A DNA stretch of 64,000 bases from Verrucomicrobiia bacterium (GTDB lineage Bacteria; Verrucomicrobiota; Verrucomicrobiia; Limisphaerales; UBA1319), in assembly GCA_963664225.1 (NCBI GenBank), contig OY760937.1, forward strand, positions 2,592,001 through 2,656,000, read 5' to 3'. The notes under the pieces are model-generated. The model did not search any database. It was not told the origin of the DNA and saw only the letters and a list, made by a program, of their open reading frames with translations. Numbering within the stretch: the stretch's first letter is position 1; every line of letters begins with the position of its first letter. The position numbers and the translations under genes are program-made. Of this stretch, positions 14,640 through 50,952 are shown in pieces.

Positions 14640-16022
14640 ATGAGATTCATCAAAACATTTTCTGCAATTGTGGCGGCATTTGCGGGTTTTTTCCTTTGCG
14701 CGTCCGCACAAGCCCAATTCGATTACACGACCAATAACGGCACCATCACCATCACCAAATACACTGGCCAAGGCGGTGCAGTGACCATTCCTGACACAAT
14801 CAGTGGTCTGCCGGTCGCCACCATTGGAACCAATGCGTTTTATCGCTGTGATAGCCTGACCAACATTACGATAGGCACCAGTGTCACCAGCATTGAAAAC
14901 TCGGCTTTCTCTAGCTGCCACAGTTTGATAAACGTCACGATTCCAAATAGCCTTTGCAGCATTGGGATTTATGCGTTCTTTTGGTGCAGCAGCCTGACCA
15001 ATATGACTATCCCAAACGGCGTTACTAACATCGGAAGCGGTGCGTTTAGTCAATGTTCCAACCTGTCCAAAATCACGATCCCCAACAGCGTTATCAGCAT
15101 CGGGAACAATGCTTTTTCCTTTTGTTCCAGCCTGGCCAGCATCACGATCCCCAATAGTGTCGTCAGCATTGGAAGCTGTGCGTTTGCGCCCTGTCCCAAT
15201 TTGGAAGCAATCGCCGTGAATGAAAACAACTCCACCTATAGCAGCCTGGCTGGTGTATTGTTCGACAAGAGTCAGGCCACGCTGATTCAATATCCGGGGA
15301 GCCAATCCAGAATCTATACGGTCCCCAACAGTGTTACCCGCATCGGGGATTCCGCGTTCTCTGACTGCTATAGCCTGGCCAGCGTCACAATCCCCAACAG
15401 CGTTACTAACATCGGGGACGGAACGTTCCATAGGTGTTGCAGTCTGACCAATGTCACGCTTCCCAACAATCTCACCAATATCGGTGATGGAATGTTCTTT
15501 GCCTGTATTAGGCTGAATAGTGTCACAATCCCCAACAGCGTCACCAGAATCGGTGGTTCTGCGTTCTACTACTGTGAAAATTTAACCAACGTTACGATCC
15601 CTAATACCGTCACCACTTTAGGTGATGCTGCGTTCCTTGACTGTATCAGCCTGACTCACATCTATTTTCAAGGTGACGCCCCCAGCCTTGAAAGACATTT
15701 GTGCTTCAATGGCTCCAATGCGACCATCTATTATCTACCGGGCACCACCGGCTGGGGCACTACCTACGGCAGTCGTCCGACTGCATTGTGGACACCGCTG
15801 GTACAAACCACCGATGCCACCTTTGGCGTGAGGAGCAATCAATTCGGTTTTAACATCAACTGGGCCAGTGGACAAACCGTCGTGGTGGAAGCCTGCACAA
15901 ATCCGGTCAATCCCACATGGTCTGCCCTGCAAACCAAAACCCTTACCGATGACTCCTTCTATTTCAGCGATCCCGAGTGGACGAATTATCCCACACGCAT
16001 CTACCGTCTGCGAGTTCCGTAG
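14640..16022 (+). CDS. BspA-type (LRR_5) leucine-rich-repeat surface protein 1
   Basis: signal peptide; 23-aa repeats [16 protein letters not shown]-terminal domain ending RIYRLRVP. Confidence 0.92.
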   Translation: MRFIKTFSAIVAAFAGFFLCASAQAQFDYTTNNGTITITKYTGQGGAVTIPDTISGLPVATIGTNAFYRCDSLTNITIGTSVTSIENSAFSSCHSLINVTIPNSLCSIGIYAFFWCSSLTNMTIPNGVTNIGSGAFSQCSNLSKITIPNSVISIGNNAFSFCSSLASITIPNSVVSIGSCAFAPCPNLEAIAVNENNSTYSSLAGVLFDKSQATLIQYPGSQSRIYTVPNSVTRIGDSAFSDCYSLASVTIPNSVTNIGDGTFHRCCSLTNVTLPNNLTNIGDGMFFACIRLNSVTIPNSVTRIGGSAFYYCENLTNVTIPNTVTTLGDAAFLDCISLTHIYFQGDAPSLERHLCFNGSNATIYYLPGTTGWGTTYGSRPTALWTPLVQTTDATFGVRSNQFGFNINWASGQTVVVEACTNPVNPTWSALQTKTLTDDSFYFSDPEWTNYPTRIYRLRVP

Positions 16023-16041
16023 GGATGGAGACGTTTTCACC

Positions 16042-16081
16042 GGTTTCCGGTTCAAGTCCGGACCGAGGCACCACTTTTTTC
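16042..16081 (+). repeat. attR-like copy of tRNA-Lys 3' end
   Basis: GGTTTCCGGTTCAAGTCCGGACCGAGGCACCACTTTTTTC identical to 14382-14421. Confidence 0.95.
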
Positions 16082-16231
16082 TCCGCATTCTCCCCTTCGC
16101 ATTCGAACGTTTTTCAGAATTACCAACGGTGGATCCATTGCCACCGGATGCGGCGGATTATTTCTCCCGGGTGGTGGGGCGCGTGATTATTCTTGTCAGG
16201 TTTCTCCATTGGCGGCTGTTTATTGATTGAG

Positions 16232-17650
16232 ATGCAGACGAATTCAGACGCCCAGTTGCTCCGTGAATACACCGAAAATGGTGGTGAGGCGGCTTTCACC
16301 GAAATCGTCTCCCGGCACATGGATCTGGTGTATTCGGCGGCGCTGAGGCAGGTGGCATCGCCTGATCTTGCCCGCGATGTGGCCCAAAGCGTTTTTATCG
16401 ATCTTGCCCGCAAAGCACCGTCTCTGGTGCGTAAGCAAGACTCTGGCACCTGGTTGATTGGATGGCTTTACCGCAGCACGCGGTTTGCGGCACTGACGTT
16501 GGTGCGCGGCGAGCGTCGCCGCGAGGCGCGCGAAATTCAAGCCATGCAAGACTCCAATCCTGATTCTGAAGTATCACCTGACTGGGACCACGTTCGGCCC
16601 AATTTGGACGAAGCGATGGCGAGCCTGAGCGCTGCGGATCGGGATGCGTTGCTGATGCGGTTCTTCAAAAACCAGGATTATCGAGCGGTCGGCGCGGCCA
16701 TCGGGGTCAGCGAAAACACGGCGCAGCAGCGTGTATTGCGCGCGCTCGAGAAGCTCCGCAAGAGCCTGGCGCGCCAGGGAATCACAACCTCCACCGCCGC
16801 GCTTTCCATGGCCCTTTCCGCCAATGCCGTTCAGGCCGCGCCTGTCGGACTGGCCGCGACCATTTCCGCACTGGCCGTGATGGCCGGTCCCGCCCTATCC
16901 ACCACAACCGCAATCGCCGCCGTAAAAACCATTGCCATGACCACTCTACAAAAGACGTTGATCACCGCGACCCTCGCCGCCGCTGTGGGAACAGGAATCT
17001 ATGAAGCCCGCCAGGCTTCCAGTTTGCGATGCCGTGTCCAGACCCTCGAACAAGAGCAAGCGCCACTGATGGCGCAAATTCAGAAGTTACAGCAGGAACG
17101 CAACGACGCCACGAACCAGTTGGCGCTGATGTCCGAGGCCACGTCCCGCGCCAATAGCAATACGATCGAACTGCTCCGGCTTCGCAGCGCCGTGGGAACG
17201 CTGCGCCAGCGCACCAACGAGCTGGGCAAACTGTTGCAGGACACGGTGGCGGCGAATCAAACATCGCAGGGGTCACTTGGACAGACCAACTTCCCGAGGG
17301 ATTCCTGGACTTTCGCCGGGTTTGCCACGCCCGAGGATGCGATTCAATCCTTTATGTGGGCCAAGAGCCGCGGCGAGGTGAAAACGGCTTTAAGCTCGGC
17401 CACACCGGAGCTGAAGCAGGAATTAATGGTTCGCTATTTCAAAGACAAAACGGACGAGGAGATCTCGGCGGCGTTGATTGATTCGGCAAAGGATCAAACG
17501 GGAATTCAAGTTCTAAAGAAGATGGCAGCGGCGGAAGATCAAGTCGTTTATCAAATCCACATTGATGGAACGCCCGATGCTTCCTACTCGCTGTTGACGA
17601 TGAAGAAAATTGATGGCGAATGGAAAGTCTCCGGCAACGAGGATCGCTAA
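16232..17650 (+). CDS. ECF sigma-70 factor with C-terminal TM, coiled-coil and extracytoplasmic extension
   Basis: SDAQLL..Y....EAAF.EIV.RH..LVYSAALR...LARDVAQSVFIDLARKA (region 2); L...DRDALLMRFF....RAVG.AIGVSE..AQQRV.RALEKLR (region 4); TM TLITATLAAAVGTGIY. Confidence 0.9.
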   Translation: MQTNSDAQLLREYTENGGEAAFTEIVSRHMDLVYSAALRQVASPDLARDVAQSVFIDLARKAPSLVRKQDSGTWLIGWLYRSTRFAALTLVRGERRREAREIQAMQDSNPDSEVSPDWDHVRPNLDEAMASLSAADRDALLMRFFKNQDYRAVGAAIGVSENTAQQRVLRALEKLRKSLARQGITTSTAALSMALSANAVQAAPVGLAATISALAVMAGPALSTTTAIAAVKTIAMTTLQKTLITATLAAAVGTGIYEARQASSLRCRVQTLEQEQAPLMAQIQKLQQERNDATNQLALMSEATSRANSNTIELLRLRSAVGTLRQRTNELGKLLQDTVAANQTSQGSLGQTNFPRDSWTFAGFATPEDAIQSFMWAKSRGEVKTALSSATPELKQELMVRYFKDKTDEEISAALIDSAKDQTGIQVLKKMAAAEDQVVYQIHIDGTPDASYSLLTMKKIDGEWKVSGNEDR

Positions 17651-17844
17651 AATGGAAGTGAGACTGCAACGGCAGTAGAATCTCTAACGGGCTTCGCTAT
17701 TTTCCACCGCCTGAATATTGTCCTGCGCCTGCTGCATCTGGAGATTCAAAAGCGCGATGGTCAGAGGCGGGCAAAGCCACTACATTTGGGCATTGCCTGT
17801 CACCTGTGAGAATGATTTTCAGATTGTGACCGTGCGCTTATAAA

Positions 17845-18915
17845 ATGAAAACAGACTTTTTCCGCCTTCTCTTTGGAACGATGCAGGCGTGGGTTGCGAT
17901 GGCGGGGGTGGCTCTGCCGCTTGGGGCCGCTGAATTCAAGCCGGGCGAGGTCTGGCTGGACACCGAGGGCAAGCCGATCCAGGCGCATGGCGGCGGGATA
18001 CTGGTTCAGGAGGGCGCCTACTATTGGTATGGCGAGGATAAAACGCTCGGGAACATGAACAAGACGGGCATCTCGTGCTACTCCTCCACGAATCTTTACG
18101 ACTGGAAGCATGTGGGAGTCGTATTGCCCAAGGAAGCCATGCCGCCGCAATTTCAGGATCGCGGAGTCGTGGAGCGGCCCAAAGTCCTCTACAATGCGCG
18201 GACCCGAAAATACGTGATGTGGATGCATCTGGACGATCGGGGTTATCACGCGGCCAGCGCGGGCATTGCCACAGCGGATTCCCCTGCCGGACCTTTTGTG
18301 TTCCTGCATAAAATGCGGCCCATTCAATTCGACGTCGGTTATAAGGAGACCGATCCGGATCACCAAAAAGAGCTTGGCGGGACGTATCGCGACATGAACC
18401 TGTTCCTGGACAGCGACGGCAAGGCGTATGCGTTTTATGCGTCGGAGGGAAACGCCACGCTGTATGTGGTGCGATTAAACGAGGACTTCACCGGACCGCA
18501 AACTCCGGCGGAACAAGGCAAGACCTGGGCCCGGGTACGGGTGGGCGAGTTTCAAGAAGCTCCCGCGCCATTCAAGCATGGGAACCGCTACTATTTGATC
18601 ACATCGCATTGCACCGGTTGGGCTCCAAATCCCGCCAGCTACGCGGTGGCCGACAACATACTTGGACCCTGGGTGGTCAAGGGCAATCCGTGCGTGGGCG
18701 CTGAAGCGGAAACCACGTTTCGTTCTCAAAGCACCTTTGTCCTGCCGGTGGCCGGTAAACCCGGATGCTTTATTTTCATGGCGGATCGGTGGTTGAGCAA
18801 AACCCTGCAAGACTCCCGATATATCTGGCTGCCGCTCATTCTCAAGCCGGACGGTTCGTTTACATTGGAGTGGCGGGATCAATGGGATTTGTCGGTGCTT
18901 GACAGCACAAAGTAG
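17845..18915 (+). CDS. glycoside hydrolase family 43 (GH43_24-like exo-beta-1,3-galactanase)
   Basis: signal peptide; IQAHGGG, YYWYGE, ERPKV, RDMNLF, EAPA, SQST, MADRW. Confidence 0.88.
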   Translation: MKTDFFRLLFGTMQAWVAMAGVALPLGAAEFKPGEVWLDTEGKPIQAHGGGILVQEGAYYWYGEDKTLGNMNKTGISCYSSTNLYDWKHVGVVLPKEAMPPQFQDRGVVERPKVLYNARTRKYVMWMHLDDRGYHAASAGIATADSPAGPFVFLHKMRPIQFDVGYKETDPDHQKELGGTYRDMNLFLDSDGKAYAFYASEGNATLYVVRLNEDFTGPQTPAEQGKTWARVRVGEFQEAPAPFKHGNRYYLITSHCTGWAPNPASYAVADNILGPWVVKGNPCVGAEAETTFRSQSTFVLPVAGKPGCFIFMADRWLSKTLQDSRYIWLPLILKPDGSFTLEWRDQWDLSVLDSTK

Positions 18916-19041
18916 CATGGCCTCGATATCAGAATCCATGGGTGGATTCCGGTTCTGGAGCCAACGCGTCAATGTTGGATTCAAGTGTGCTGGCTGATTA
19001 TTTGTTTGACATAACGGACCGTTTTCGTTACACACGTAATC

Positions 19042-21297
19042 ATGGACCAAAAACAAGTGTCTCCATGTTTTGCAAGAACCGTCCGTCCTAATACAACACC
19101 TGTGCTTTTAAGAACCGCCGATGCCAGGACGTTGCTGCCGACTCTCCTGGTTCTATTACTGGTGTTTGCGTTGCCCGCTGCGCTCCAGGCGCAATTCCAT
19201 TACTCAACTAATTTCGGAAGCATCACCATAACGAGTTACACCGGGTCCGGGGATGTAGTCAGCATTCCGGATGTCATTGAGGGTTTGCCAGTCACAAGCA
19301 TAGGCGACAACGCATTTTATTACTGCAGAAACCTTAGAAGCATCACGATCCCCAACAGCGTCACCATCATAGGAACCAGAGCTTTCCAAAACTGCTTCAA
19401 ACTGGCGGACATTACGATCCCCGATGGTGTCACCACGATCAGGGATGGAGCGTTCTACAATTGCGGTAGCCTGACGAGCATCACGATCCCCGACAGTGTC
19501 ACCAATCTCGGGGATTTCGTTTTCTTTAGCTGCGGCCTGACGAATATCACGATTGGCAAAGGCGTCACCAGCTTGGGATACGATTTATTCGATTATTGCT
19601 TCGGGCTGAAAAGCATTACGATACACGACAACATCACCAGTATCGGGGACGATACATTCCGTTATTGCACTAATTTGACGGACGTCACGATCCCCGAAAG
19701 CGTCACCAGTCTCGGGCATGAGGTTTTCAATGAATGCACGAGCCTGACGAATGTCACGATTGGCAAAGGTGTCACCAACCTCTCGATCAGCGTGTTCAAC
19801 GATTGCACGAGTTTGAAATCAATTACAGCAGATGAGCTCAATCCTTCCTATCGGAGCATAGATGGGGTTTTGTTCAACAAAGATCAAACCACGCTCATTC
19901 GATTCCCGCTAAATAAGACCGGAAGTTATACCCTCTCCGATGGCGTCACCCTCATTGGGGACGGTGCGTTCTCCGCATGCACTGGCCTGACAAACATCAC
20001 AATAGGAAAGGGCATCAGCAATATTGGGGATAATCAATTCAATGGCTGCAGCAATCTGAAAAGCATCACGATTCCCAATAGCGTCGCAAACATCGGAAAT
20101 GGAGCTTTTATTAACTGCGTCAGTCTGACAGACATCTCTATTCCCAATAGCGTCGCAAACATTGGCGATTATGGGTTCGCGAATTGCGCCAGCCTGGCAA
20201 ACATCACGATCCCCAGCGGCGTCTATACCTTGGGAGCTTATGCGTTCACCAAATGCACCAATCTGACAAACGTTACGATCCTCAACGGTATTGCCACCAT
20301 CAGGGATTGGACGTTCGATAACTGCCTCAACCTTCAAACGGTGACAATTCCTGAAAGTGTCGCCAGTATCGGAGCTCGGGTGTTCAATAACTGCACGAGC
20401 CTGACTGATATTACTATTCCAGACAGGGCTCGCAGTATTGGTGAATATACGTTCAATAACTGCACGAGTCTGGAATACGTTACGATACCTAATAGTGTCA
20501 TAACCATTAAAACGTGCGCGTTCTTTAACTGCACCAGTCTGACAAACATCACAATCCCCGACAGTGTCACCAGCATCGAAAGCTACACGTTTTACAATTG
20601 CACGAGCCTGAAAGGCATTACGATAGGCAAAGGTCTCAGCAGCATGGGCTGGCGTGCATTGTCCGGTTGCACGAGTTTGTCCGGAATCACGGTGGATGAA
20701 CACAATTCCTACTACTCGAGTTTTGCCGGTTCACTTTTTAATAAGAAGAAGACCGAACTTATTCAATTTCCAATAATGCAGACTGGAAATTATGCGATTC
20801 CCAATACCGTCACCACTATTGCGGGCTTTGCGTTTTCTTCTGCAAGATTGGGCCTCATCACCATTCCCAATAGTGTCACCAACATTGCATTCAGCACGTT
20901 CTCCTACTGCTCAAGCCTGACCAACGTCTATTTTCAAGGTAACGCTCCCGGCATTGACTCGTATGTGTTCGATGGCGCCAACAACGCAACCGTCTATTAC
21001 CTGCCGGGGACCACAGGCTGGGCTGCATCCTTCGGCGGTCGGCCGACAGCTCCGTGGGTTCTTCCGAACCCGCTGATCTTAAATTACGGTTCCGGCTTTG
21101 GCGCGAATACCAACGGCTTCGGTTTCGTCATCTCCTGGGCCACGAACGCGACCGTCGTCGTGGAAGCGTGTGACGACCTCACCAATTCCGGCTGGTCACC
21201 GCTTCAAACCAACGCCCTCGTCAACGGCTCATCCTATTTCAGCGATTCCGAGTGGGTCAATTATCCCGGACGGCTCTACCGCCTGCGCATGCCATAA
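19042..21297 (+). CDS. BspA-type LRR surface protein 2
   Basis: signal peptide ending ALQA|Q; many 23-aa LRR_5 repeats; ends RLYRLRMP; start uncertain. Confidence 0.92.
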   Translation: MDQKQVSPCFARTVRPNTTPVLLRTADARTLLPTLLVLLLVFALPAALQAQFHYSTNFGSITITSYTGSGDVVSIPDVIEGLPVTSIGDNAFYYCRNLRSITIPNSVTIIGTRAFQNCFKLADITIPDGVTTIRDGAFYNCGSLTSITIPDSVTNLGDFVFFSCGLTNITIGKGVTSLGYDLFDYCFGLKSITIHDNITSIGDDTFRYCTNLTDVTIPESVTSLGHEVFNECTSLTNVTIGKGVTNLSISVFNDCTSLKSITADELNPSYRSIDGVLFNKDQTTLIRFPLNKTGSYTLSDGVTLIGDGAFSACTGLTNITIGKGISNIGDNQFNGCSNLKSITIPNSVANIGNGAFINCVSLTDISIPNSVANIGDYGFANCASLANITIPSGVYTLGAYAFTKCTNLTNVTILNGIATIRDWTFDNCLNLQTVTIPESVASIGARVFNNCTSLTDITIPDRARSIGEYTFNNCTSLEYVTIPNSVITIKTCAFFNCTSLTNITIPDSVTSIESYTFYNCTSLKGITIGKGLSSMGWRALSGCTSLSGITVDEHNSYYSSFAGSLFNKKKTELIQFPIMQTGNYAIPNTVTTIAGFAFSSARLGLITIPNSVTNIAFSTFSYCSSLTNVYFQGNAPGIDSYVFDGANNATVYYLPGTTGWAASFGGRPTAPWVLPNPLILNYGSGFGANTNGFGFVISWATNATVVVEACDDLTNSGWSPLQTNALVNGSSYFSDSEWVNYPGRLYRLRMP

Positions 21298-21532
21298 GGC
21301 ACCAAGGCACGGACGTGCTCCAGCAGAAATTGAAAATGGAATGGCGCGGCAAATGGGGCCGGCGCGTCTTAGAGGGAACAAGGTTTTAAGCAAAAGCTTT
21401 TTTGGTGGATTTTATAATTGGATGCAGGTTCTGGAGCCTTCCACAGTTGTGAAACAGAGACCAATTTCGAGGTTCGCCGGATGTCTGTGGATTTCTTGAT
21501 ATATCAGCCCGCGCATGGCATCCTGAATCAAG

Positions 21533-23227
21533 GTGTTCATAAGAAAATTACAAGGTCCCGTCTGTTTTACGAGAACCGCCAATGCCACGAGGTTGATGCT
21601 CATTGTCCTATTGCTGGCATTACCCGCCGCGCTGCTGGCCCAATTCGATTACACGACGAATGACGGCGCGATCACGATCACGAATTATACCGGCGGCGAA
21701 GGCGCGGTCACCGTCCCGGATGTGATCGACGGCCTGCCGGTCACCAGAATCGCCAACAATGCGTTTCTTTCCTGCTACGGGCTGACCAACATCATGATTG
21801 GCGGCAGCGTGACCAACATCGGGGCCGCGGCGTTCAATGGCTGCACGAATCTGGGGGCCATCACCATGGACGACCTCAATCCTGTTTATGCGAGTCTGGC
21901 CGGGGTTTTGTTCGATAAGAATCTGACCGCGCTCATTCAATATCCGGTTGGCCACGGTGCAGACTATACGATCCCCGGCAGTGTCACCCGCATCGGGGCC
22001 GCGGCATTCTACAATTGCACCGGTCTGACCAACATCCTGATCGGCGACAGCGTCACCCGCATCGGTAATAGCGCGTTCTACAACTGCAGCGGTCTGACCC
22101 AGCTCACGCTTCCCAACAGCGTCACCAACATCGGGGCCGGGGCGTTCTCAAGCTGCGCCAGTCTGACTGACATCGCGATTCCCGACAGTGTGATCGAACT
22201 CCAGGATGGGACGTTCGACAATTGCTCCAGTCTGACCAACGTGACGATCCCCGATGGCGTTGCCAACATTGGGAATTATGCGCTCTCCGGGTGCGCGAGC
22301 CTGACCGCCGTGGAGCTCCCCAACGGAGTCACCAACATCGGGGTTGGAGCCTTTTCCAACTGCTCGAGCCTGACCAATATCGCGGTTCCCAACGGCGTTA
22401 CCAACATCGGGGCGGCGGCGTTTGCGAACTGCTACAACCTCACCAACATCACGCTGCCCGGCAGCGTTGCCAGCATCGGGTGGAACGCGTTCGGGAATTG
22501 CACCAACCTGGCGAGCATGACGATCCCCGACTGCGTCACCACCATCAACAACGAAACTTTCCGATGTTGTTACAACATGACCAATGTCACATTTTTAGGG
22601 AGTAACATTACCAGCATCGGATCCGGGGCCTTTGGGGATTGCACCTTGCTGAGCGGCGTCGCGATCCCCAACGGCGTCATCAGCATCGGGGATGGCGCGT
22701 TCTCCTGGTGTCGGAGTCTGACCAACGTCACGATACCCGAGAGCCTGACCAGCATTGGGACCGAATCGTTCAATTATTGCACCAGCCTGACCAACCTCAC
22801 GATACCAAACAGCGTCACCCGCATTGGAGATGGCGCGTTCGCCGGATGCAGCGGCCTGACCGGCATTTTTTTCGAAGGCAACTCCCCCAGCGTGGGTTCC
22901 TCTCCATTCGTTTATGCCGAACGTGTGACCGTCTATTACCTGCCGGGAACCACGGGCTGGGAGGCGACCTTTGGGGGGCGTCCGACCGCATTGTGGAATC
23001 CGGAGCCGCTTACCATCGATGCGAGCCTTGGCCGACCGACCAATTACTTCGGATTCAACATCACCGGTGCCAGCAACCTGGTTGTCGTTGTGGAAGGCTG
23101 CACCAATCTGACCAGTCCCACCTGGTTCCCGCTCCAAACCAACACGCTCACCGACGGTATTTTCTATTTCAGCGATCCTGAGTGGACCAATTATTCCGGA
23201 CGGTTCTATCGGTTGCGCGTGCCGTGA
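21533..23227 (+). CDS. BspA-type LRR surface protein 3
   Basis: signal peptide ending ALLA|QF; LRR_5 repeats; ends RFYRLRVP; start uncertain. Confidence 0.92.
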   Translation: MFIRKLQGPVCFTRTANATRLMLIVLLLALPAALLAQFDYTTNDGAITITNYTGGEGAVTVPDVIDGLPVTRIANNAFLSCYGLTNIMIGGSVTNIGAAAFNGCTNLGAITMDDLNPVYASLAGVLFDKNLTALIQYPVGHGADYTIPGSVTRIGAAAFYNCTGLTNILIGDSVTRIGNSAFYNCSGLTQLTLPNSVTNIGAGAFSSCASLTDIAIPDSVIELQDGTFDNCSSLTNVTIPDGVANIGNYALSGCASLTAVELPNGVTNIGVGAFSNCSSLTNIAVPNGVTNIGAAAFANCYNLTNITLPGSVASIGWNAFGNCTNLASMTIPDCVTTINNETFRCCYNMTNVTFLGSNITSIGSGAFGDCTLLSGVAIPNGVISIGDGAFSWCRSLTNVTIPESLTSIGTESFNYCTSLTNLTIPNSVTRIGDGAFAGCSGLTGIFFEGNSPSVGSSPFVYAERVTVYYLPGTTGWEATFGGRPTALWNPEPLTIDASLGRPTNYFGFNITGASNLVVVVEGCTNLTSPTWFPLQTNTLTDGIFYFSDPEWTNYSGRFYRLRVP

Positions 23228-23394
23228 GATGGAGGGAAACTACCCACGTATTGAAAGGGAGAAGCGACAAAGCCGCAATGCGCCCCGTGACAATCTTTTA
23301 GCGCAATTCGATTTGACAGCGGGATACGCTTCTGAAACTCTGCAGTTTCGCTGGTCTGTTGTTCTTGTCGGAATAATAAGTGGAGGAACATTAC

Positions 23395-25605
23395 GTGTCG
23401 CACAATAAAAAAACGAAGTGTGCTTTTGCCTGGAAATTGGTTGCACTGCTGGCGTTTCTGCTTGTCTGCCAACCTGGCCAGACTCTCGGCCAGACTTATG
23501 ATTACTTCAAATACTCGGTCAGTGGCAGCAACGTGACAATTACAGGGTACTTCGGCCTTGGTGGCGCGGTCACAATACCCGACTCAATACCGGAAGTGGG
23601 AACAGTCACCTCCATCGAAAAGAACGCGTTCTTGAATTGCACCAGCCTGACCTACATCACCATTCCCAGCAGCGTCATCACCATAGGAGACGCAGCGTTC
23701 GCCAGATGCACTGGTCTGACCGGCGTCACCATCCCCAGCAGCGCCGCCTCTATCGGAGATCGGGCGTTCGCCTTCTGCAGCAGCCTAATTGCCATTAATG
23801 TAGATTCAAACAACGCTTCCTATAGCAGTCAAAACGGTGTGCTTTTCAACAAGAGCCAGACAGTGCTCGTTCAGTATCCTGGAGGAATTAAAGGGACATA
23901 CACCATCCCCAACAGCGTCACATCCATCGGAGTTGCGGCGTTCCTCGCCACTGGCCTGACCGGCATCTCAATCCCCAACAGTGTCACCTCCATCGGAACC
24001 TACGCGTTCAACTGGTGCATCGATCTGACCGACATCACCATCCCTAACAGTGTCACCACAATTGGAAACGGAGCGTTCGGAGGCTGCACCAGTCTGATCA
24101 GCGTCACCATCCCTAACAGTGTCACCTCCATCGGAGACTACGCGTTCTCCGGTTGTTTCAGCCTGACAAACATCACCATCCCTAACGGAGTCACCTCTAT
24201 TGGAAACTACGCGTTTGGAGACTGTATCGGTCTGACCAGCATCATCATTCCAAATAGCGTAACCTCCCTGGGTGGCGGGGCATTCCAAAAATGTGCCGGT
24301 CTGACCAGTATCACCCTCCCTAACAGCGTCACATACATCGGAGACTGGACGTTCTATGGCTGCACCGACCTGACCAGCGTTACCATCCCCAGCAGCGTCA
24401 CCTCCATCGGAGGCAGTGCATTCGAAACCTGCACCGGCCTGACCAGCATTACCATACCAAACAGCGTCATCTCCATAGGTGATGCGGCGTTCGCCAACTG
24501 CGCCGGCCTGACCAACATCACCTTCCTGAACAGCGTGACATCCATTGGAGCGTTCGCGTTCAACAATTGCACGGGTTTGACCAACATCACCATCCCCAGT
24601 AGCGTTACCTCCATAAAATACGAGGCATTCGGCAGATGCACCGGCCTAATTGCCTTTAATGTTGATTCAAACAACGCTTCCTATAGTAGTCAAAACGGTG
24701 TGCTTTTCAACAAAAGCCAGACAGCGCTCCTTCAGTATCCTCAAGGGATTAACGGAACATACACGATTTCCAACAGCGTCACCTCCATCGGAGTGATGGC
24801 GTTCGAAAACTGCACCGGCCTGACCGGCATTACCATACCAAACAGCGTCACCAACATAGATGCGGGGGCATTCTTTAGCTGCAGCGGTCTGACAAACATC
24901 ACGATCCCCAACAGTGTCACCTCCATTGGTGGCGGGGCATTCGAAAGCTGTACCGGTCTGACCAGTATCACCATCCCCAACAGTGTCGGCTCCATCGGAG
25001 ACTACGCATTCTTCAGTTGCACGGGCCTGACCCACATCACCGCCCTCAGTGGCGTCACCAACATCGGAGACAGCGCATTCTACAGTTGCACAGGTCTGAC
25101 AAACATAACGATCCCCAACAGCGTCACCTCCGTCGGAGAGCTGGCGTTCGCATGGTGCACCAGCCTGACCAGCGTCACCATCCCCAATAGTGTCACCTCC
25201 ATCGGAGGCTGGGCGTTCGAACGGTGCGCCAACCTGACCAGTGTCTATTTCCAGGGTAACGCTCCCAGTCTTGGAGGGTATGTTTTTGACGGCAGCCAGT
25301 ATACGACCGTCTATTACTTGCCCGGCACCACAGGATGGAGCACGGATTTTGGTGGTCTTCCGACGACATTATGGAATCCAATGCCTCTGGCTGGGGACAG
25401 CCGCTTTGGCGTGCGCACAAATCAGTTTGGATTTCAGATCACTGGTGCCAGCGGCATCATGGTCGTTGTGGAAACAGCCAGCACTCTGACCAATCCCATT
25501 TGGATACCTGTGCAAACAAACATCCTGGCCGGGGGAATAGCCGATTTTAGCGATCCCCAGTGGACGAATTATACCAGCAGGTTTTATCGTTTTCGCATGC
25601 CGTGA
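23395..25605 (+). CDS. BspA-type LRR surface protein 4
   Basis: GGAGG at 23382-23386 before GTG 23395; signal peptide; LRR_5 repeats; ends RFYRFRMP. Confidence 0.92.
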
Positions 25606-27639: not shown

Positions 27640-28728
27640 ATGAAAACCATCCCACTTCAGCGGGCGCTTTGCAGCCTGCTTTCAGCATGGATCATTACCA
27701 CGGCATGTCTTGGGGCCGATCCCGGAGGCACCGCCAATCCCAACGCCTCCCCGGACGCCCGGGCGGTTTTGAAATATTTTCAGGATATTTCCAAACGCAC
27801 GAATAAACGGGTCATTTCGGGGCAATTCACGGATTTTGGCACCGGTGCCAGCCTTCGACTGATGGAGGATATTCACACGAAGACCGGGCACTGGCCGGGT
27901 CTGCTGGGGGCGGATTATGCGGATTTTGGAAAGGGAGGTTTGCTTTGCGACAAGGCGAACGCGGCGGCCATCGCCTACTGGAGAGAAGGCGGATTGGTGA
28001 CGCTCAGCGCGCACCTGTATAATCCGGCGAATCCCAAGGGGGGCGGGTTGAGGGACAAAGGGGTGGACCTGGCCACGCTGCTGGAGCCTGGGGAAACGCA
28101 TGATCGCTGGATGCGCCAGTTGGACCAGTTGGCGGGAGGGTTGCAGGAGTTGAAAGAGGCGGGCGTGGTGGTGCTGTGGCGGCCATTTCACGAGATGAAC
28201 GGTGACTGGTTCTGGTGGGGTCGCCAGGATCCCGCCACGTTCATCAAGGTATGGCGGCATATGTTCGATTACTTTTCCACGACCAAAAAACTCGATCATT
28301 TGCTGTGGGTTTATGGTCCCAATCACGGGGAGAAAACGGCGGCTTACTATGCCGGCGACGCTTATGTGGACCTGACGGGTCTGGATGCCTACACGGACTT
28401 CATCGATCCGCAGCACATCAAGGGGTATGCCGAAGTGGCGGCGTTGGGCAAGCCGTTCGGCTTTACGGAATACGGTCCCCATGGCCCCCAGGATCCACCG
28501 GGCGATTACGATTACCGGCGGTTTATTGCGGGCATTGAGAAGGATTTCCCGGCGACCTGCTTTTTCATGAGCTGGAATGGGAAATGGAGCCTGGCACGGA
28601 ATACCAACGAGAAAGAACTGCTGGAGAACCGGTTAATCATCAATCGCGAGGATTTGCCAAAGGATCTGTGGACCACGGCCGCTCCGGCCAAATCGACGGA
28701 AGAGAAGCCGACGGAAGAGAAGAAATAG
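27640..28728 (+). CDS. glycoside hydrolase family 26 (beta-mannanase-like)
   Basis: signal peptide; LWRPFHEMNGDWFWWG acid/base motif; KPFGFTEYG nucleophile motif. Confidence 0.92.
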   Translation: MKTIPLQRALCSLLSAWIITTACLGADPGGTANPNASPDARAVLKYFQDISKRTNKRVISGQFTDFGTGASLRLMEDIHTKTGHWPGLLGADYADFGKGGLLCDKANAAAIAYWREGGLVTLSAHLYNPANPKGGGLRDKGVDLATLLEPGETHDRWMRQLDQLAGGLQELKEAGVVVLWRPFHEMNGDWFWWGRQDPATFIKVWRHMFDYFSTTKKLDHLLWVYGPNHGEKTAAYYAGDAYVDLTGLDAYTDFIDPQHIKGYAEVAALGKPFGFTEYGPHGPQDPPGDYDYRRFIAGIEKDFPATCFFMSWNGKWSLARNTNEKELLENRLIINREDLPKDLWTTAAPAKSTEEKPTEEKK

Positions 28729-33102: not shown

Positions 33103-36100
33103 TCAAGGCAGGCGCGTCACGCGGTAGAACCGGGCCTGTCCCGCAGGCGGCAGGTCCGTGCAGGCCGCGCTGGCATTGGTGGCCGTAACGACGGAGCCCA
33201 GATCGGTCCAGGCGCCCGGCGTGAGCTGATCGGCAGCCTGCACCTGGTATCGGCCACCTGCCTGGGAGGCCCAGCTCAGGGCGACGTTTTGTCCGGGACG
33301 GGCGGCAATGCTCAAAATGCGCAATTCGACGGGCGGATCGACGATGAGGAAACTCAGGGTCGTAGTGGCGCTGCGAACCGGCAGGCCATTGTCGATTACG
33401 CGGATTACGGCCGGATAAAGCCCCGCAGGCAGCGAGACTGGCGGTGTCCATGTAAAGATGCCGCTGACGGGATCGACGACTGCTCCCGCCGGAGCGCCCG
33501 GAGCGAGGCTGAAGCGGAGGATTTGGCCGGGATCGGGATCGGTGGCGACGATGGGGTATTCCAACGGTTCACCGCGAACGATCTCCTGTAGGCCGCTGTA
33601 ATCGCTGATGACCGGCGGCTGGTTTGTGCCCGCAACAGGGACAATGCTTTGATCGAAGTTAATGCCGAAGCCAGAAAGGCGCAGGACGAGACTGGCGGCG
33701 TTGGTCCCAGGGAGGCACCAGAAGCTCAAGGTGTAGGGCGCGCCGGTCGTTAATCCGGGGACCATGGTTTGAAAGATGGAGGAGCCTCTGGTGGTTCCGC
33801 CGACGGAATCGACCACATGCAGGCTCGAATGACCCGAGTGAGCCACGTTGGTGACGATGGATGAATCGATGAGATTGGGCGAGACGGTCCATGGCCCGGT
33901 CAAGTCGGATTCGAAATCGCCGTTGACCAGAAGGTTGGCTCCCACTCCGGCCTCGCTCCCGCTGACGATTTGGAGGTCGTCAAGGTAGAGTTCACCGGGG
34001 GCGGTCAGATAGATATACAATACGGAACTGCTGCCCGTGCCTGTGTAGGTGAAGTAAGTCCAGGCGGGAAGGTCGTTAACAATGACCGTGAATGCCCGCT
34101 GGTCGGACAGAGCCGGAGAGCCGTTGTCGGTGACGCGCACCAGGATTGTGTTGGTGCCCGGGATTTGATCGGGGGCGGGCGTCCAGTGAAGCGCGCCCGT
34201 GGTGGCATCGAGGGTCATGCCTGCAGGGGCGCCGGACACCAACTCATATTGGAGCTTGTTGGCCGGAACATCCGCGTCCGAGGCGGTGACATCAAGGTTG
34301 AGGGCCTGGCCGCGCGACAGGCTTTGGTCGGGAATGGAATCGAGAACGGGCGCGGTGTTGACCTCGCGAACCACGACCAGAAAGGTGCGCGCGTCACTGC
34401 GGGGAGGCAGGCCATTGTCGGCCACACGAACGGTTACGGTGTTGGTGTATGGACCCTGGATTTCATTGGGTATCCAGCGCAGAACTCCGGTGACGGGATC
34501 GATGGCCATTCCGGCGGGCGAGCCACCATCGAGGCTGTAGGCGAGCGTCTGACCGGGATCGGCATCGGTCGCCGACACCACCAGGCGCAGGATGGTGATT
34601 TCGTCCATGTATTGGTCGGCAATGGGAGCGAGCACGGGCGCGTGATTCAATTTGCTGGCGATGACACGGAAGACCTGGCTGGCGCTGAGCGGAGGCTGGC
34701 CGTTGTCAGCTACACGCACGGTGATGGTATTTGTGGAGGGAATATCGCTGGCGGCGGGAGTCCAGGTCAGAAGACCGGTGGAGGAATCGATCCGCATCGC
34801 GGCAGGCGCGCCAGCATCCAGACCGAACGTGAGCCCCTGGGCCGGGAGGTCGTCATCGGTGACGACGACCTGGAAGGAAAGGGTTTCCCCTTCCATGACA
34901 CTCAAATCGGCCGAGGGCTGGATGCGCGGCGCGGTGTTCACCTCATTCACGATGACATGAAAGGTGCGAACATCGCTCATCGCGGGGGCGCCATTGTCGG
35001 TGACGCGCACGGTGATGTCGTAGGCGCCCGGTCCTTGAATCTCTGAAGGGGTCCACGAAAAGGCCCCGGTCACGGCGTCCAGGGAAGCGCCCGGCGGTTT
35101 GGCGTCCAATGAGTACGTGAGCGTTTGCGCGGGCCGGTCGGCGTCCGTGGCCGCGAGGTTCAGGCTCAGGGTCTGACCTTCGCTGATGGTTTGATCGACA
35201 ATGGAGGGGAGCACCGGCGGAGTGTTGACCTCGTTGACCGTGACGGTAACGCGCTTTTGAGCGGTCAACGGCGGAGCGCCATCATCGGTCGCCCGAACGC
35301 TGATCGAATAAACGCCCGGCCCCTGGAGTTCCGAAGGGGTCCAGGAAAAAACACCGGTGACCGGGTCGATCATCGCTCCTACAGGCGCGCTGCCCAAGCT
35401 GAAGGTCAGGGTCTGGTTGGTGTCCAGATCGGATGCCGTGGCCGTGAATTTGAGAGATTCAAGTTCGTTGACGACGGCGTTCGAGAGGACCGTGAGGACG
35501 GGAGGACGATTGCTCGACGAAACGCGGTTGGGCGCGTCGGGTGTGGGATTCTCCATGAAGAAGAATGGTTCGGCGGCGCCATCGGGCCAACGGCCCTGGC
35601 TGACATCGTTTGTTTGCGGCTCGAAGACGACCATGTCCACCAGGCCGCCGTTCGGATCGAACAGCCCAATGGATTCGCCCGACTGGCTGAGCTTGAAGTT
35701 TGTGTGGATCGCCCGATTGGTGGGGCTATTTTGATTCGCGTCGTTATCGGCCCAGACCAGCAGGAAATCCCCGGCCGCGATCGTGGTGCCCGTAGGGATG
35801 ACGAACTGGGTGGTGTTGGTGGGGGTATCGGTCAACGTATAGCCGCCGAGATCCACGATTTCAGACCCGGCATTGTAGAGCTCGAACCAATCGTCGTAGG
35901 GATTACTGGTTAACGGATTGTTCGCGGGATCGGCCAGGGTGCGGGTATTGGAGGCCATCCATTCGTTGATGAACACCTGGATGGGCTGGAAGGCCGGATT
36001 GTTCGTCGCCCCCGGGGTTGGAAATTGGAACCCCTGGTGGCTGAAGGGCTGACCGTCGGGATAGTCGCCATAGGAACGGCCGGCGCCGACGGTGCGATAA

Positions 36101-39100
36101 TTGAGGTAATCGCAAATCACGGGTTGCTGCTGGCTAGTGAACTGGGATAGAACGACAGTTCCGGCTGCGGGAGCGATTCGGAAACCGGCATGGATTTCGT
36201 TTGCGGTGGTTTCCTGGGTATTGCCGTCGGCCCAGACGAGCAAGAAGGTGTTTCCACCCATCGTCGTCCCGGCTGGAAACGACCATTGGCCGGGGTTGGA
36301 GAAATTGGTGCCCAAGTACAGGCCGGCAAGGCTGACCGCATTTGTGCCGGGGTTGTATAGCTCAATCCATGGTTCGCGGTGGCCCGCGGCGTCCACAGGC
36401 CCAGCCACATTCTCGGGCTGAACTTCATTGATCCACACCGGAGGGAATGCAGGCAGGGAGGCGCGCACGGAGTTGACCACGCCGGGGGTGAACCTGACTG
36501 CGGCATTGGTGGCGGTGCAGGCCCAATTTCCAACGCGCGACCGGTCCCGGGCGGGATCGATCAATTGAAGCGAAGGTCCCTGACCATCGGCGACCACCGG
36601 CCAGGGGGCCGAGTCGTGGTATTCGACCTCATCGACGACAAAATCCGAAGAGGGGTCGGCACCGGGAATCACCAGGCGCAGATGCTCGCCGCCGTGGCTC
36701 AACTGGCCCGTGTAACCGGCGGCCACCGGGATGGACGCGCCATAGGCCGATGCGAATTGCACCGCGTCCTGCGCCAAAACCAGATACCGGCCCGGCTCGA
36801 TCAGCAGGCCGTCCGGGAAGGTGAAGCCCAGGCCGTCAAACCGCCAGCGCGAAAGGTCGAAGGTGGTGGTGGTGGAACGATTATAGAGCTCCACATATTC
36901 CGCGCCCGTGATCACCGGGTGATACATGATTTCGTTGATGACCAGGTTATCCTGCGGCAAATCCGCGACGCCGGTGTAATTGATTGTGAGGCTGGCCGTG
37001 GCGCCTGTGAAGAGAGCGCCGGAACGATCGTAACCACGGACCACCAGGGGGTTGGCCCCCGCCTGCAAGGCGACGCGCGCCGACCAGGCGGTTGCCGTGG
37101 TCCAGGTCAGTGGATAGGCCACTCCATTGATCGTGATCTGTCGAACGTCCAGGGGGGCCAGGCCTGTGATGGTGACCAAACCGGCATTGGTGGAAAAGTT
37201 CTGACCGTTGTTGATCGAGAGTCTGAACCCGACCAGGTTGTTGTTCAGGACCGTCAGCAGGTATTGCCGACGCTGTTCGAGCCGGGTTTTGGCATCCGTG
37301 GTATCGCCGACGGCGATGCCGTTGGCCAGAAGGCCCGCGTAAGTGCCGTCGAGAATGGTGCCCACGGTTTTAGGCAGCATGGGGCCGGTGGCGGCATCCT
37401 GTATGGCCTGCAAATAAATCCGGCGGAAGGACGGTGTGGAATAAATGCGGGTCATGACGGGATCGCTGACATCGAAAACATCCTGGTTGGGATCCTGCAA
37501 CAGGAAGTCGATATCCCAGGGGAGCATGATCCATTTACCGGCGGTCGGCTTGTAGGTGTACATGTTCTTGCCCCGGCGGAAACCGTAGCTGTCCCAGTTG
37601 ACCATGATATGTTCGACGGCGAAGACGCGCATCCACTGGTTGACATCCACCAGGGAATCGAAGTTGCGAACGAACGCGTTGTAATCGACGGTGTTGGCAG
37701 CATCCACCAGATTGAAAACGCTTTGGTAATCGTTGGCCGAACTGTTCACGGCCCGTTTTTTCCAGTGCCACCGATAGCGGGCGGTTTTTTTGACACCGCC
37801 GGTGGTGGTGAAGTTTTCCATGGTGGCCGCGGTGTCCCCGTTGTCGCGGGCGAATCCGCTGCCCGCATCGTCGAACTCGAAACCATCGTCCAATTTATAG
37901 AGGTCCCCGTTATTATCCTTGGGAGCGACTTCGTCGATCACATCGCCGCCGGGTTGGAGGCAGTCCTCGTAGATCGTGCCGCGGCGGTTGCCATTGACGA
38001 AAAGATTGATGTAGCGGCGGTAACACCCGTGGGTACCCAATTGCTCCGCCAGCCAGAAGGCGATGTGCTCGAGCTGTCCGGAGACATCGACTTCGAATTT
38101 TGGCCAATCGAGGGTAAACCCGGTCGTGTTCAGGCAGGGATTATCCTCGGGGAATTCAAAGACGTAACCACAGGCGCCGCCAATCGGACCGGAATAACCT
38201 GGGGAAATGAAGGGGCTGCCGCCGTAGAGGGAGCCGACATTATAAATCACGCGGCTGTCGCCATAGACAAAGGTGGCGTCGATGGGCGCGTTATTGAGTT
38301 TTTCACGGTTGGTCCAGAGTTGAACGGCTTTTTGGGTCAGCCACAAATGGTAATTGCCCAAGTTACCGATGGGCTTGGGTTCCGCGAAGCGCACGAGGCA
38401 CTCACGCGCGGGAGCTCCGGCGGGGAAGACGGATTGGAGCGGTGTGGCGGCGGCATCGGTGGCCTGGATGTAAAAGGCGTCGAGCAGGGTGCTGGATTGC
38501 ACAGGAATGACGGCGCTGTAATAGCCCGCCCCGTTGTAAGCCATATTCACGATGGTGTAATTGGTGGCGGGGTCCACACGGTATTTGAGGACCAGGCTGG
38601 CCAGCCCATCGGGGTCGGACACGCGGGCCCGGACGGTGACGTTCTGGCCGAGAGTGGGCAGCACGGGGCTGTGGGAGACATCGAAAATGGCGGGGCCGGA
38701 ATTGGGCGCGGCGCAGGAGTTGCGCGCTCCGGGGGTTCCGGGATTGGGGGGAACCACGAGACTGCCGGAGGCTTCGAGCCAGTTGCCACGCAAACGCAGC
38801 AGCACCTCGGGCCAGCCTTTGAGCCAGCGCACTTTGGCGCGGAGGGTGGCGGTGTCGCCGGGATTGAGTCCGGTCTGAAGGGCGACCCGGATGCGGTTGG
38901 CGCCGGGATCGCCGCGACCTTCGGCGCGAACATGCAGGCATCCGCTGTTGTTGACGCCGCCGGTGGGTTGCCATGTTGTGGCGCCATGGTTGCCCTGGGC
39001 AACCCAGCCTGCCATGCCGGAAGTGAACGAGGGATTGGCAACCAGATTGACGCCCTGTTTGAGGACCTCGACATCGTCCACGAGGCATTCCCCGGCATCC

Positions 39101-45975: not shown

Positions 45976-46140
45976 ACAAGTGAGGCAATGAGGGGAACGC
46001 CCCGCATTGTTACCCGTTATTTAATGAATCGCGGAACCCATTGCAAATAAAAACCGCCAAAATGTCAGGGCGCGTTGAGCGGCTCGGTTTTATGACGGCA
46101 CTCCGGAGAGTTGGCGCAGTAGCGAATCCGGGCGCGACGG

Positions 46141-47127: not shown

Positions 47128-47155
47128 GCAGCAGGTTACCCGATAAGAGATTTGT

Positions 47156-47584: not shown

Positions 47585-47615
47585 AATATTTAATCGGGGT
47601 TGATGGTGATTCGGG

Positions 47616-48908: not shown

Positions 48909-49142
48909 GAGGCATCCTTATAAAATTAACCGCCGCCGACGGCCATTCGGCCCTGATCAGCGGCACACCACGTAAAGAATCCAAATTTGACGGAATCAGA
49001 ATAGTCCCATTTTGGCCACAGCCAGGCCTTGAGTAGCAAGAGAAATCGTGTCTGGCGGGGAATGCGCGGGTTGACTTTGAAGGGCGCGAATCCCGCGGAT
49101 TCATTCGAAAGGAAGAAGAATCAGGCCGCGGTCACGGCCCCG

Positions 49143-49955
49143 TCAGTATTTTTCGTCGGCCGATTCAAGCACCTGCAGGATGCGGTTAAAGGCATCATAC
49201 AGGTCGGCGTTGTTCTGCAGGTCCATGGTGAACCGGCGGTCCTGATTGGATAAGGAAGAAACGTGGCCATCGGTAAACAGGGCGTTGGCAAATTTTTGCT
49301 TGTGATGGGTGCGGGGCTTGATGTTGTAGGCGGCCACGGCGGGGGCACAGAGAAACTGCGAGTCGATGGCCAGGGCGCGAATGGGCTTGCCGTTGCGATT
49401 GTTGCCGGGGTTGTCCAGGCGGATGGACTCGGGTTCGGCGGGGGGTGTGTAAAACAACTGGGTGACACCGCCGTGGCGGTAATAATAACTGCACTGCACC
49501 TGGCTGGCGCCGATATTCGCGAGCTCGGCGTTCACATCCACATTTTGATCGGCGCCGGGGCAGAAGAGCACTCTGGGGGTTTGTGCCAGGTGCTTTTTTA
49601 GAAGCAAACCCAATCCTGCGGGCGCGCCGCTGCGCAGCGAAAGCAGGCTGGTGGGCGTGCCTGTTGAAGGATAGAAATCGGCCGGATGCGAGAAGGGCGG
49701 CGCCACGGGGCCGTAGGGCATTTTGCCGTCATTATCGCCGGCGTAGCCTTGAATGGCGATGCCGATCTGTCGGAGGTTCGAAATGCAGGCGACTTTCCGA
49801 CCTGAATCCCTGGACCTTGCCAGGGTGGGCAGCAACAGGGAGGCGAGAATGGCGAGGATGGCAATGACGACGAGCAATTCAATGAGCGTGAAGGCACAGT
49901 GCGCGGCGGATGGCGCTTGTGTCACGTTGCGTTCCTGTGCTTTCACTGATTCCAC
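49143..49955 (-). CDS. prepilin-type N-terminal methylation protein, DUF1559/H-X9-DG class
   Basis: [36 protein letters not shown]-terminal [11 protein letters not shown]. Confidence 0.9.
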
Positions 49956-49962
49956 TCAACAC

Positions 49963-50952
49963 TCAAGGAGCCTGCCGAGCCTGGTAAAACCGGTTGCCAG
50001 CGGCTGTGTTCGTGTCGGTGAACGAGACGCTGCCGGTCAAATTGGTGATCGTTTCCAGGCTTGTCCAATTGGCCGACGGAAGCGCGCTATTGGTGCAGGC
50101 CAGAATCTCCCATCGCCCGGGCTCGCTTTCGAGAGTGAATCGAAACTGGCCGTTGGTCACGCCCCAGGCCGTCAAGACGGGAGCGGGCACGGTTTCCAAC
50201 CGGACGTTATCCAGGTCCCAATAGCCGCCATTGAGATCGAAACCCACTGTGGAGGCCAGTTCAATGCCGATGTTCTGACCGGCCCACGCGTCGCCCGTCC
50301 GAACGAAGGGAGTCCGGGCTTGAAAATCGACAAAATGAGTGTTGTTGGGAAAGAGCTCCGCAGTGTTTGTGATCGTCGTTGCGGCAACCGTTACTTTGTT
50401 ATTCCCGGCGTCGCGATAATAAAGGCTGATCTGGAGCGGGACACCATTGGACATTCCGCCGCCACCGCCAATGAGTCCGACCTTTAGCGCGTAGGCATTG
50501 CCGACTTCAAAGCGCGCGTTGAATTCGTGCGTTGGAACGGAATTGGTTCCCGAAACCGAGTTGTAATCCTGAAAAATGGAAACGTCCGGCTGCGCAAACA
50601 AAAAGGCCCCCTGCCTGCCCTCAATGTTGTCGATGTGGGTGGGGCTGCCGTTGGTGGTATTCAGGAACTGACCGAGAAACTGGTCCCACGGAAACCCGCC
50701 GCCACCCATATACCACGCGGGTTCGGGGGCCTTCTGCCATGCGTCCATGGCTGGATCCGCGTAGGACGTTTCCGGGGATTCGAACGATCCATTGGGCACA
50801 ACAACGGTTCCCGCTCGAACGGAACCCGTGACTGCCGCCAGGGCGATGAGCCCGGCCAGAAGGGTGAACAAAGACCGGTTGGAGCCGCGCGCATCGGCGG
50901 CCAGATTGCTTTTGAATTCAGGTGTCTGCATTTTATTGAAATGCCTTAACAT
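49963..50952 (-). CDS. secreted CBM-like protein with C-terminal RFYQ domain
   Basis: signal peptide; VPNGSFE...WDLDNVRL jelly-roll-like ends; C-terminus FTDTNTAAGNRFYQARQAP; start 50952 or 50931. Confidence 0.75.
   Translation of the reverse strand: MLRHFNKMQTPEFKSNLAADARGSNRSLFTLLAGLIALAAVTGSVRAGTVVVPNGSFESPETSYADPAMDAWQKAPEPAWYMGGGGFPWDQFLGQFLNTTNGSPTHIDNIEGRQGAFLFAQPDVSIFQDYNSVSGTNSVPTHEFNARFEVGNAYALKVGLIGGGGGMSNGVPLQISLYYRDAGNNKVTVAATTITNTAELFPNNTHFVDFQARTPFVRTGDAWAGQNIGIELASTVGFDLNGGYWDLDNVRLETVPAPVLTAWGVTNGQFRFTLESEPGRWEILACTNSALPSANWTSLETITNLTGSVSFTDTNTAAGNRFYQARQAP

Follow-up and report, generated by a model that had tools for sequence, protein, structure and literature searches.

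A 64,000-nucleotide stretch of the genome of a Verrucomicrobiia bacterium (contig OY760937.1, positions 2,592,001 to 2,656,000; hereafter the window, numbered from its first letter) encodes six secreted proteins that end in the same small domain, which we call the FYR tail. This uncatalogued domain marks the free end of ~115 secreted proteins in this single genome. We located and translated the open reading frames (ORFs) of the window and labelled the six carriers P0001 to P0006. The original prediction, which regarded the tail as a candidate sorting signal, had placed the ends of these ORFs at 16022, 21297, 23227 and 25605 on the plus strand and at 33103 and 49963 on the minus strand, and all six were found there. 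Read by eye, each N-terminus resembles a signal peptide, as had been claimed, in that basic residues are followed by a hydrophobic segment and an A-x-A-like site. According to Pfam, P0001 to P0004 are BspA-type leucine-rich repeat (LRR) proteins of the LRR_5 family. The 2883-aa P0005 combines PA14, six LTD, CotH, six He_PIG and CBM_4_9 domains, and the 347-aa P0006 is HpiC1-like, resembling a carbohydrate-binding module (CBM). The features are as follows.

15780..16019, plus strand: FYR tail, last 80 aa of the LRR_5 protein P0001 (gene 14640-16022); the hidden Markov model (HMM) match reaches to within 0-3 aa of the stop; C-terminus ...RIYRLRVP
21055..21294, plus strand: FYR tail of the LRR_5 protein P0002 (gene 19042-21297; start possibly 19102); C-terminus ...RLYRLRMP
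22985..23224, plus strand: FYR tail of the LRR_5 protein P0003 (gene 21533-23227); the sequence modelled with AlphaFold2, predicted local distance difference test (pLDDT) 86, five strands, FN3-like
25363..25602, plus strand: FYR tail of the LRR_5 protein P0004 (gene 23380-25605); C-terminus ...RFYRFRMP
33106..33345, minus strand: FYR tail of the PA14/LTD/CotH/He_PIG/CBM_4_9 protein P0005 (gene 33103-41754); C-terminus ...RFYRVTRLP
49966..50205, minus strand: FYR tail of the HpiC1-like P0006 (gene 49963-51006); tail residues 277-345, six strands, pLDDT 70-86
14640..25605, plus strand: cluster of four tail-bearing LRR_5 genes (Pfam)
49143..49955, minus strand: prepilin-type gene (N_methyl and DUF1559), 8 bp downstream of P0006; a neighbour, not a supported partner

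When the six 83-aa tails are aligned, W, R, Y and the terminal P are invariant. The proposed length of 65-75 aa was about right, the HMM core having 58 positions and the part ordered in the AlphaFold model covering approximately residues 20-80 of the last 80. Within the window, the tail HMM matches the P0001 to P0006 ORFs only. As first stated, the tail is missing from the ORFs of the glycoside hydrolases GH26 (27640-28728) and GH43 (17845-18915) and of the beta-helix protein (9986-11746). The GH43 ORF lies between the clustered LRR_5 genes, together with another tail-less ORF coding for a sigma-70 factor of the extracytoplasmic function (ECF) type (485 aa, 16193-17650). The tail of P0005 is of a generic subtype that is met across the genome.

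We searched the tail HMM against all stop-to-stop ORFs of at least 50 aa in the whole 5,783,426-bp genome. The first-pass HMM, built from the six tails, detected 29 domains at i-E<=1e-3, and five rounds brought the number to 128 domains in 126 ORFs. Reversal of the same ORFs gave no matches with the first, fourth-round and A2 profiles, the latter derived from an alignment of 114 terminal tails (A2) that also served as AlphaFold2 input. The resemblance of the tails is thus not due to chance. Using a crude signal-peptide heuristic, 105 of the 126 carriers were positive, compared with 1104 of 3247 long control ORFs, which agrees with the expected co-occurrence of tail and signal peptide; several of the 21 negative carriers have an obvious signal peptide by eye.

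The great majority of the domains (115/128) end at most 10 aa before the stop codon, and three others end 13, 14 and 42 aa before it. Two are the upstream copy of a tandem pair, and eight are found directly behind a signal peptide, at ORF residues ~55-145. A strict C-terminal position, as originally anticipated, therefore describes the 115 terminal copies and not the post-signal-peptide or upstream tandem ones. The terminus itself is sharply defined. Among the 115 terminal copies the characteristic triplet is FYR in 61 and YYR in 15, and 80 stop exactly 4-5 residues past it. Sixty-eight of them (59%) have a C-terminal Pro, versus 245 of the 3247 control ORFs. One 93-aa ORF (C1:3514912-3515193, plus strand) is little more than a tail, and it shares its last 12 residues, MRDSVFFRVTAK, with the adjacent 2386-aa ORF (3506586-3513746). 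It resembles the product of a local duplication, or a fragment of a gene.

The cargo of the carriers is very diverse. Pfam scans at E<=1e-5 covered 79 of the 125 fetched carriers, namely every one of at most 1066 aa; of the 46 longer ones, P0005 alone was scanned. No Pfam family was found in the tail region of any of the 79. Sixteen of them are LRR_5 proteins. Enzyme cargo comprises a cyclophilin, GH16, a PF10091 glucoamylase, an alpha-1,3-glucanase, two GDSL lipases, Peptidase_C25, an M10 matrixin, a type I phosphodiesterase, a calcineurin-like phosphoesterase and GSDH. Other carriers harbour CAP, LTD, Laminin_G_3, cadherin/Big_9 or immunoglobulin (Ig)-set domains or propellers of the NHL, DUF5122, PQQ and PD40 types, and 17 are devoid of any Pfam family. 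The small enzymes (cyclophilin, GH16) and the CAP-domain protein have exactly one tail copy each. Behind the N-terminal copies, we identified FGE-sulfatase domains (four paralogues), a 3-keto-disaccharide hydrolase, a multihaem cytochrome c and two proteins without a Pfam family. Single-linkage blastp clustering of the cargo was uninformative, as 86 of the 126 proteins merged via shared Ig-like domains.

Two types of carriers deserve separate mention. An 830-aa protein (L022, C1:1624893-1627385, minus strand) is composed of sigma-70 regions 2 and 4, DUF5122 propeller repeats and a terminal FYR domain. This protein probably represents a fusion of ECF sigma and anti-sigma factors whose extracytoplasmic sensor part would stay tethered to the inner membrane. 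Furthermore, Peptidase_C25 (gingipain-family) proteins with an FYR tail recur in several genomes of the phylum (L027, C1:1848272-1850893, in this genome; G029:C21 and G083:C57 elsewhere). In Bacteroidota, the same protease family carries type IX secretion system (T9SS) C-terminal domains (CTDs).

The FYR family is greatly expanded and concentrated in Verrucomicrobiota. The present organism belongs to this phylum, its Tex protein sharing 74% identity with Verrucomicrobiota metagenome-assembled genomes and 68% with Chthoniobacterales, and LRR homologues with the tail likewise stem from Verrucomicrobiota metagenome-assembled genomes. The domain is present in 52 of 101 sampled genomes of this phylum, with a patchy distribution by family: all genomes of f4 (11/11) and f17 (5/5) have it, compared with 2/9 in f6 and 1/16 in f12. 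Among the 40 best non-self matches (32 genomes), a sample that leans to C-terminal-type copies because the profile was built from such copies, 36 end at most 10 aa from the stop, and the ~200 aa upstream are free of a second copy in all 40. Only 7 of 61 sampled Planctomycetota genomes have matches, mostly weak ones, and no tail was detected in the four Segatella, Anaerocaecibacter, Treponema and Pelotomaculum genomes searched. A homologue search with the P0006 tail returned only 6 close orthologues, and the ESM Atlas yielded only unnamed Verrucomicrobiota clusters (0.88). One Planctomycetota-labelled metagenome-assembled genome of the Tepidisphaeraceae (G101) has 10-11 strong tail matches (best E 4e-17), in contrast with 54 of the 60 other Planctomycetota, which have none. 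Its tails could result from horizontal transfer or from mis-binned Verrucomicrobiota contigs.

A profile search of 1.84 billion representative proteins collected 104,074 matches at E<=1e-3, 10,681 at E<=1e-10 and 168 at E<=1e-30. The best 150 are unavoidably multi-copy proteins: 149 of them contain 911 copies (2-27 each), 806 of which are not the terminal copy, and the last copy lies within 10 aa of the C-terminus in 105 of the 149. In the array examples inspected, FYR closes every repeat and a linker with Pro comes next. Measured from end to end over 625 pairs of consecutive repeats, the median period is 90 aa and the 5th percentile 73 aa. Pfam scans of six array proteins revealed no family over the repeats, only summed partial matches. 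The highest score of a single copy in this genome is 81.8 bits, versus more than ~120 bits for the 168 top proteins. As these exceed any single-copy score found here, long arrays probably represent a small minority of the family. In one representative protein (P0149, 1054 aa), an FYR domain comes after each of two full LRR_5 blocks, the first tail thus being internal. Either two tandem genes have fused here, or the gene call reads through from one into the next.

The domain is uncatalogued in the copies of Pfam and NCBIfam used, these being the two InterPro member databases checked: no family of either collection matches the last ~80 residues, even with the tails alone at E<=10. The Pfam fn3 family (PF00041) matches no tail at E<=10 and is not found in the tail region of the 79 scanned carriers. 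In the literature accessible without subscription, our search found no description of the domain. The predicted structure agrees with the small beta-domain envisaged at first. The AlphaFold2 model based on A2 is a small sandwich of five strands with a pLDDT of 86, spanning residues 22-78 of the last 80. The full-length P0006 model is poor outside the tail (pLDDT 52), and its tail alone is ordered, with six strands.

Foldseek found no match to the tail model in the PDB at E<0.1. The best matches of an exhaustive VIA-align search were to FN3/Ig-like sandwiches, with Z scores of 5.0-6.3, values below 8 being weak on their own. They include tissue factor, a monobody, the FN3 domain of RIM-binding protein, FlgD, small CBMs, 3MPC (Z 5.2) and fibronectin module 1. 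In these alignments, the last residue of the tail corresponds approximately to residue 70-77 of FN3 chains of 89-96 residues. Profile comparisons pointed in the same direction. The A2 profile matches residues 3-74 (of 103) of 3MPC, a Clostridium thermocellum Fn3-like module, with E 1.1e-4 and, with E 7.7e-3, the CtXyl5A Fn3 module 5G56, and in both the 'qrFYRvr' motif of the tail is aligned to 'TKYYYVV'. These bacterial Fn3-like (X1-type) modules are the sole significant whole-domain profile matches of the tail. They share with it an L-x-W ... Y-x-V ... D ... YYxV pattern, and both appear in the structural list. These modules of cellulosomal enzymes are internal linkers, in contrast with the terminal FYR tail, which stops after the F strand.

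We take the YYYVV motif to be the FN3 F strand with its tyrosine corner. In the FN3 topology, a G strand normally follows. Because the alignments extend no further than the F-strand motif, with only 4-5 residues left before the C-terminus, the tail appears to have no G strand; its last strand would be F, of the form x-[FY]-[YF]-R-[VLI], with a C-terminus that is usually Pro. The seven strands A-G of FN3 are not seen in the tail models, which show five to six. That the tail is a divergent, short FN3-like beta-sandwich of ~60-70 aa with strands A to F is reasonably secure. The conserved L, W, G..Y, W, D and FYR positions look like FN3 core residues.

The A2 profile also matches the discoidin-type chitosan-binding domains 2RV9, 4ZXE and 4ZY9 over 61 residues (53-113 of 136 in 2RV9/4ZXE) with E values of 4e-6 to 8e-6. 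Despite the different and larger fold of these domains, this match surpasses those to true Fn3-like modules. It is not a full-length match to F5/8 type C (discoidin, CBM32), as only 61 residues of the ~130-aa domain align. Pfam F5_F8_type_C gave only partial, sub-threshold matches, on array proteins. The homodimer prediction of the tail, run without controls, scored 0.01 and speaks neither for nor against self-association.

We next looked at what sits at the same place in LRR homologues of other phyla. From 49 closed ORFs of other organisms homologous to P0003, 20 were dropped as fragmentary or as ending within ~50 aa of the LRR match, and the last 100 aa of the remaining 29 were scanned. Dockerin_1 was found at the C-terminus of six and SLH at that of two, and Por_Secre_tail, the T9SS CTD, was found in one above the cut-off and in two below it. 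One ends in fn3, six have LRRs to the very end and one has a weak DUF6383 match. The rest have no family, and two Verrucomicrobiota FYR tails are among them. Thus, LRR_5 homologues of Verrucomicrobiota harbour an FYR tail where those of other phyla have a dockerin, SLH or T9SS CTD. The dockerins and SLH domains of this C-terminal place belong to LRR proteins of Firmicutes and some Bacteroidales.

This 'choice of anchor' pattern, the terminal bias and the cargo diversity favour a localisation role. In the reading that we prefer, with a probability of about 40%, the tail is a retained, putative non-covalent docking or retention module. It would stay on the mature protein as a single copy at the free end of extracytoplasmic cargo, which is nearly always the C-terminal end and occasionally the one just behind the signal peptide. 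It might bind a shared cell-envelope ligand or protein, possibly via its open F-strand edge, and such binding would retain the secreted enzymes and adhesins on the surface of the cell. Its role would be akin to that of SLH or dockerin modules and unlike that of a cleaved translocation signal. Placement at either end fits a binding module, given the eight copies directly behind a signal peptide. Dockerin and SLH are retained non-covalent localisation modules that can be present at either end or in multiple copies. Nevertheless, their folds and sequences are unrelated to the FYR tail, and their partners are cohesins and secondary cell-wall polymers. The BACON domain of Bacteroidota is another small beta-sandwich, usually terminal and sometimes in tandem, on glycan-degrading proteins, and whether it is a binding module or a spacer is debated. 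The likeness is by description only, as BACON is mostly N-terminal and catalogued in Pfam, unlike the FYR tail.

Several points weigh against docking. We found no conserved surface patch pointing to a binding site, and the usual view of ordinary bacterial Fn3-like modules is that they are spacers. A true sorting signal would equally be expected to show the many-cargo pattern and such an extreme C-terminal bias. Furthermore, per-genome tail counts rest on the best 56 scored matches, which limits abundance profiling.

A possible but doubtful alternative is that the tail is a passive structural module, i.e. an FN3-like spacer, folding cap or stabiliser without a specific partner, whose C-terminal bias results from domain shuffling. 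Its distant kinship in sequence and fold to Fn3-like linker modules of glycoside hydrolases is consistent with this, and core-type positions alone are conserved. The long tandem arrays are reminiscent of Ig/FN3 stalk domains, and N-terminal placement also suits a passive module. However, where a protein has its free end, a spacer has nothing to hold apart. That 90% of the copies are terminal, with a stop 4-5 aa past FYR and a terminal Pro in 59%, suggests selection on the end itself. The single copies on cyclophilin, GH16 and the CAP-domain protein likewise argue against a spacer.

We regard it as rather unlikely that the tail is a true C-terminal sorting signal, analogous to the T9SS CTD, with which a dedicated Verrucomicrobiota machine would move cargo across or onto the outer membrane, perhaps removing the tail. 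The T9SS CTD (Por_Secre_tail, PF18962/TIGR04183) and the FYR tail are both small beta-sandwiches that form the extreme C-terminus of numerous unrelated cargo proteins with a signal peptide, present in tens to hundreds of copies per genome, lineage-restricted and found on LRR_5 and Peptidase_C25 cargo. The sharp end of the terminal copies, the C-terminal position of 36 of 40 matches in other Verrucomicrobiota genomes, the single-copy tails on dozens to more than 100 proteins per genome, the patchy occurrence in Verrucomicrobiota and a few Planctomycetota, and the T9SS CTD, dockerin or SLH at the same position of homologous cargo are all as expected of such a signal. The two domains nevertheless have no sequence or profile similarity, and FYR domains also occur behind signal peptides and in arrays. 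PF18962/TIGR04183 gave no match to the six proteins or to the tails alone at E<=10, Por_Secre_tail has no match in the whole genome, and hhalign of the tail profile with the CTD-like tails of six Bacteroidota LRR proteins gave a probability of 0.05%. The SprA profile TIGR04189 has no match in the genome, and likewise none in the control genomes, so that this search had no positive control. The eight N-terminal copies, the arrays of 2-27 copies in metagenomic relatives, most of these copies being non-terminal, and the L022 carrier that begins with sigma-70 regions also argue against a sorting signal.

No partner machinery emerged either. The phylogenetic profiling that had been suggested was performed on two candidate families in the 101 genomes, and both fail as co-occurring partners. 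The first was Peptidase_C25, to which the T9SS sortase PorU belongs. This family occurs in 18 of the 101 genomes, 15 of them tail-positive, and one member carries a tail in the present genome. We rejected it as a PorU-like sortase, as it is absent from the tail-rich families f4 (11/11) and f17 (5/5), and for the same reason it is recurrent cargo rather than a required partner. The second candidate was DUF1559. A DUF1559 gene lies within 300 bp of 8 of the 126 tail genes, compared with 3.6 +/- 1.8 by random placement, and 7 of the 39 prepilin-type DUF1559 genes are directly downstream of a tail gene on the same strand (P0006 and six others). In other genomes, only 1 of 37 stretches downstream of tail genes contains DUF1559. 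By family, DUF1559 and tail are found in 15/16 and 1/16 genomes of f12, 1/11 and 11/11 of f4, and 0/5 and 5/5 of f17, respectively. We thus rejected a prepilin-like partner on the basis of this nearly opposite distribution and of the lack of adjacency elsewhere.

Taken together, the idea of a sorting or anchoring tag is strengthened by the unrelated signal-peptide cargo, the C-terminal bias, the lineage restriction, the uncatalogued status and the position shared with localisation modules. Its analogy with T9SS-type translocation was not borne out, in view of the N-terminal copies, the tandem arrays, the sigma fusion, the hhalign result and the failed partners. Frequent internal occurrence, or membership of an ordinary known family, had been named beforehand as evidence against a tag. 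The domain does occur internally, although in a minority of cases in Verrucomicrobiota genomes, and it is a distant relative of bacterial Fn3-like modules. A more specific proposal, which we consider improbable, is that the FYR domain might be the cargo tag of a new Verrucomicrobiota surface-display or outer-membrane export pathway, with its open F-strand edge completed or gripped by a strand of a receptor or translocon in a donor-strand-like manner. If so, ~115 enzymes and adhesins of this organism would be under one address.

Lastly, it is very unlikely that the tail is a carbohydrate-binding module by which enzymes and adhesins are targeted to a polysaccharide: glycoside hydrolases and lectin-like proteins are numerous among the carriers, a 61-residue stretch matches part of chitosan-binding 2RV9/4ZXE (E 4e-6) and small CBMs are among the weak structural matches, but proteases, lipases, cytochromes, LRR proteins, a cyclophilin and a fusion with a sigma factor have the tail as well, the discoidin match covers part of a different, larger fold, and no conserved aromatic platform is evident beyond the core residues.

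Verrucomicrobiota are major polysaccharide degraders in soil, water and the gut, and the export and retention of their extracellular enzymes and adhesins are poorly understood. The FYR family could enter domain databases and annotate a large block of 'hypothetical' C-termini. In Verrucomicrobiota, the tail might be a simple means of predicting which proteins are extracytoplasmic and probably surface-associated, and it offers an experimental handle on surface display in bacteria of the Planctomycetes-Verrucomicrobia-Chlamydiae superphylum. Should the tail prove a genuine sorting signal, it would define a new route of secretion or attachment.

The PEP-CTERM/exosortase signal is another C-terminal tag found in the same genomes. 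It consists of a 24-position motif with a transmembrane helix and is not a folded domain, in contrast with the six window tails, which have no hydrophobic helix. PEP-CTERM occurs in 47 of the 52 tail-positive and 17 of the 49 tail-negative genomes, a comparison confounded by phylogeny. We rejected it as an alternative anchor in complementary lineages, as it is found alongside the tail and not in its stead. In the present genome, PEP-CTERM (TIGR02595) has eight matches, all in small proteins of 181-276 aa and none on a tail ORF. One of them (C1:1126050-1126121, minus strand) is in a 276-aa ORF; immediately downstream of this ORF come a 336-aa ORF with a tail (1125007-1126017) and, after it, a prepilin-like gene.

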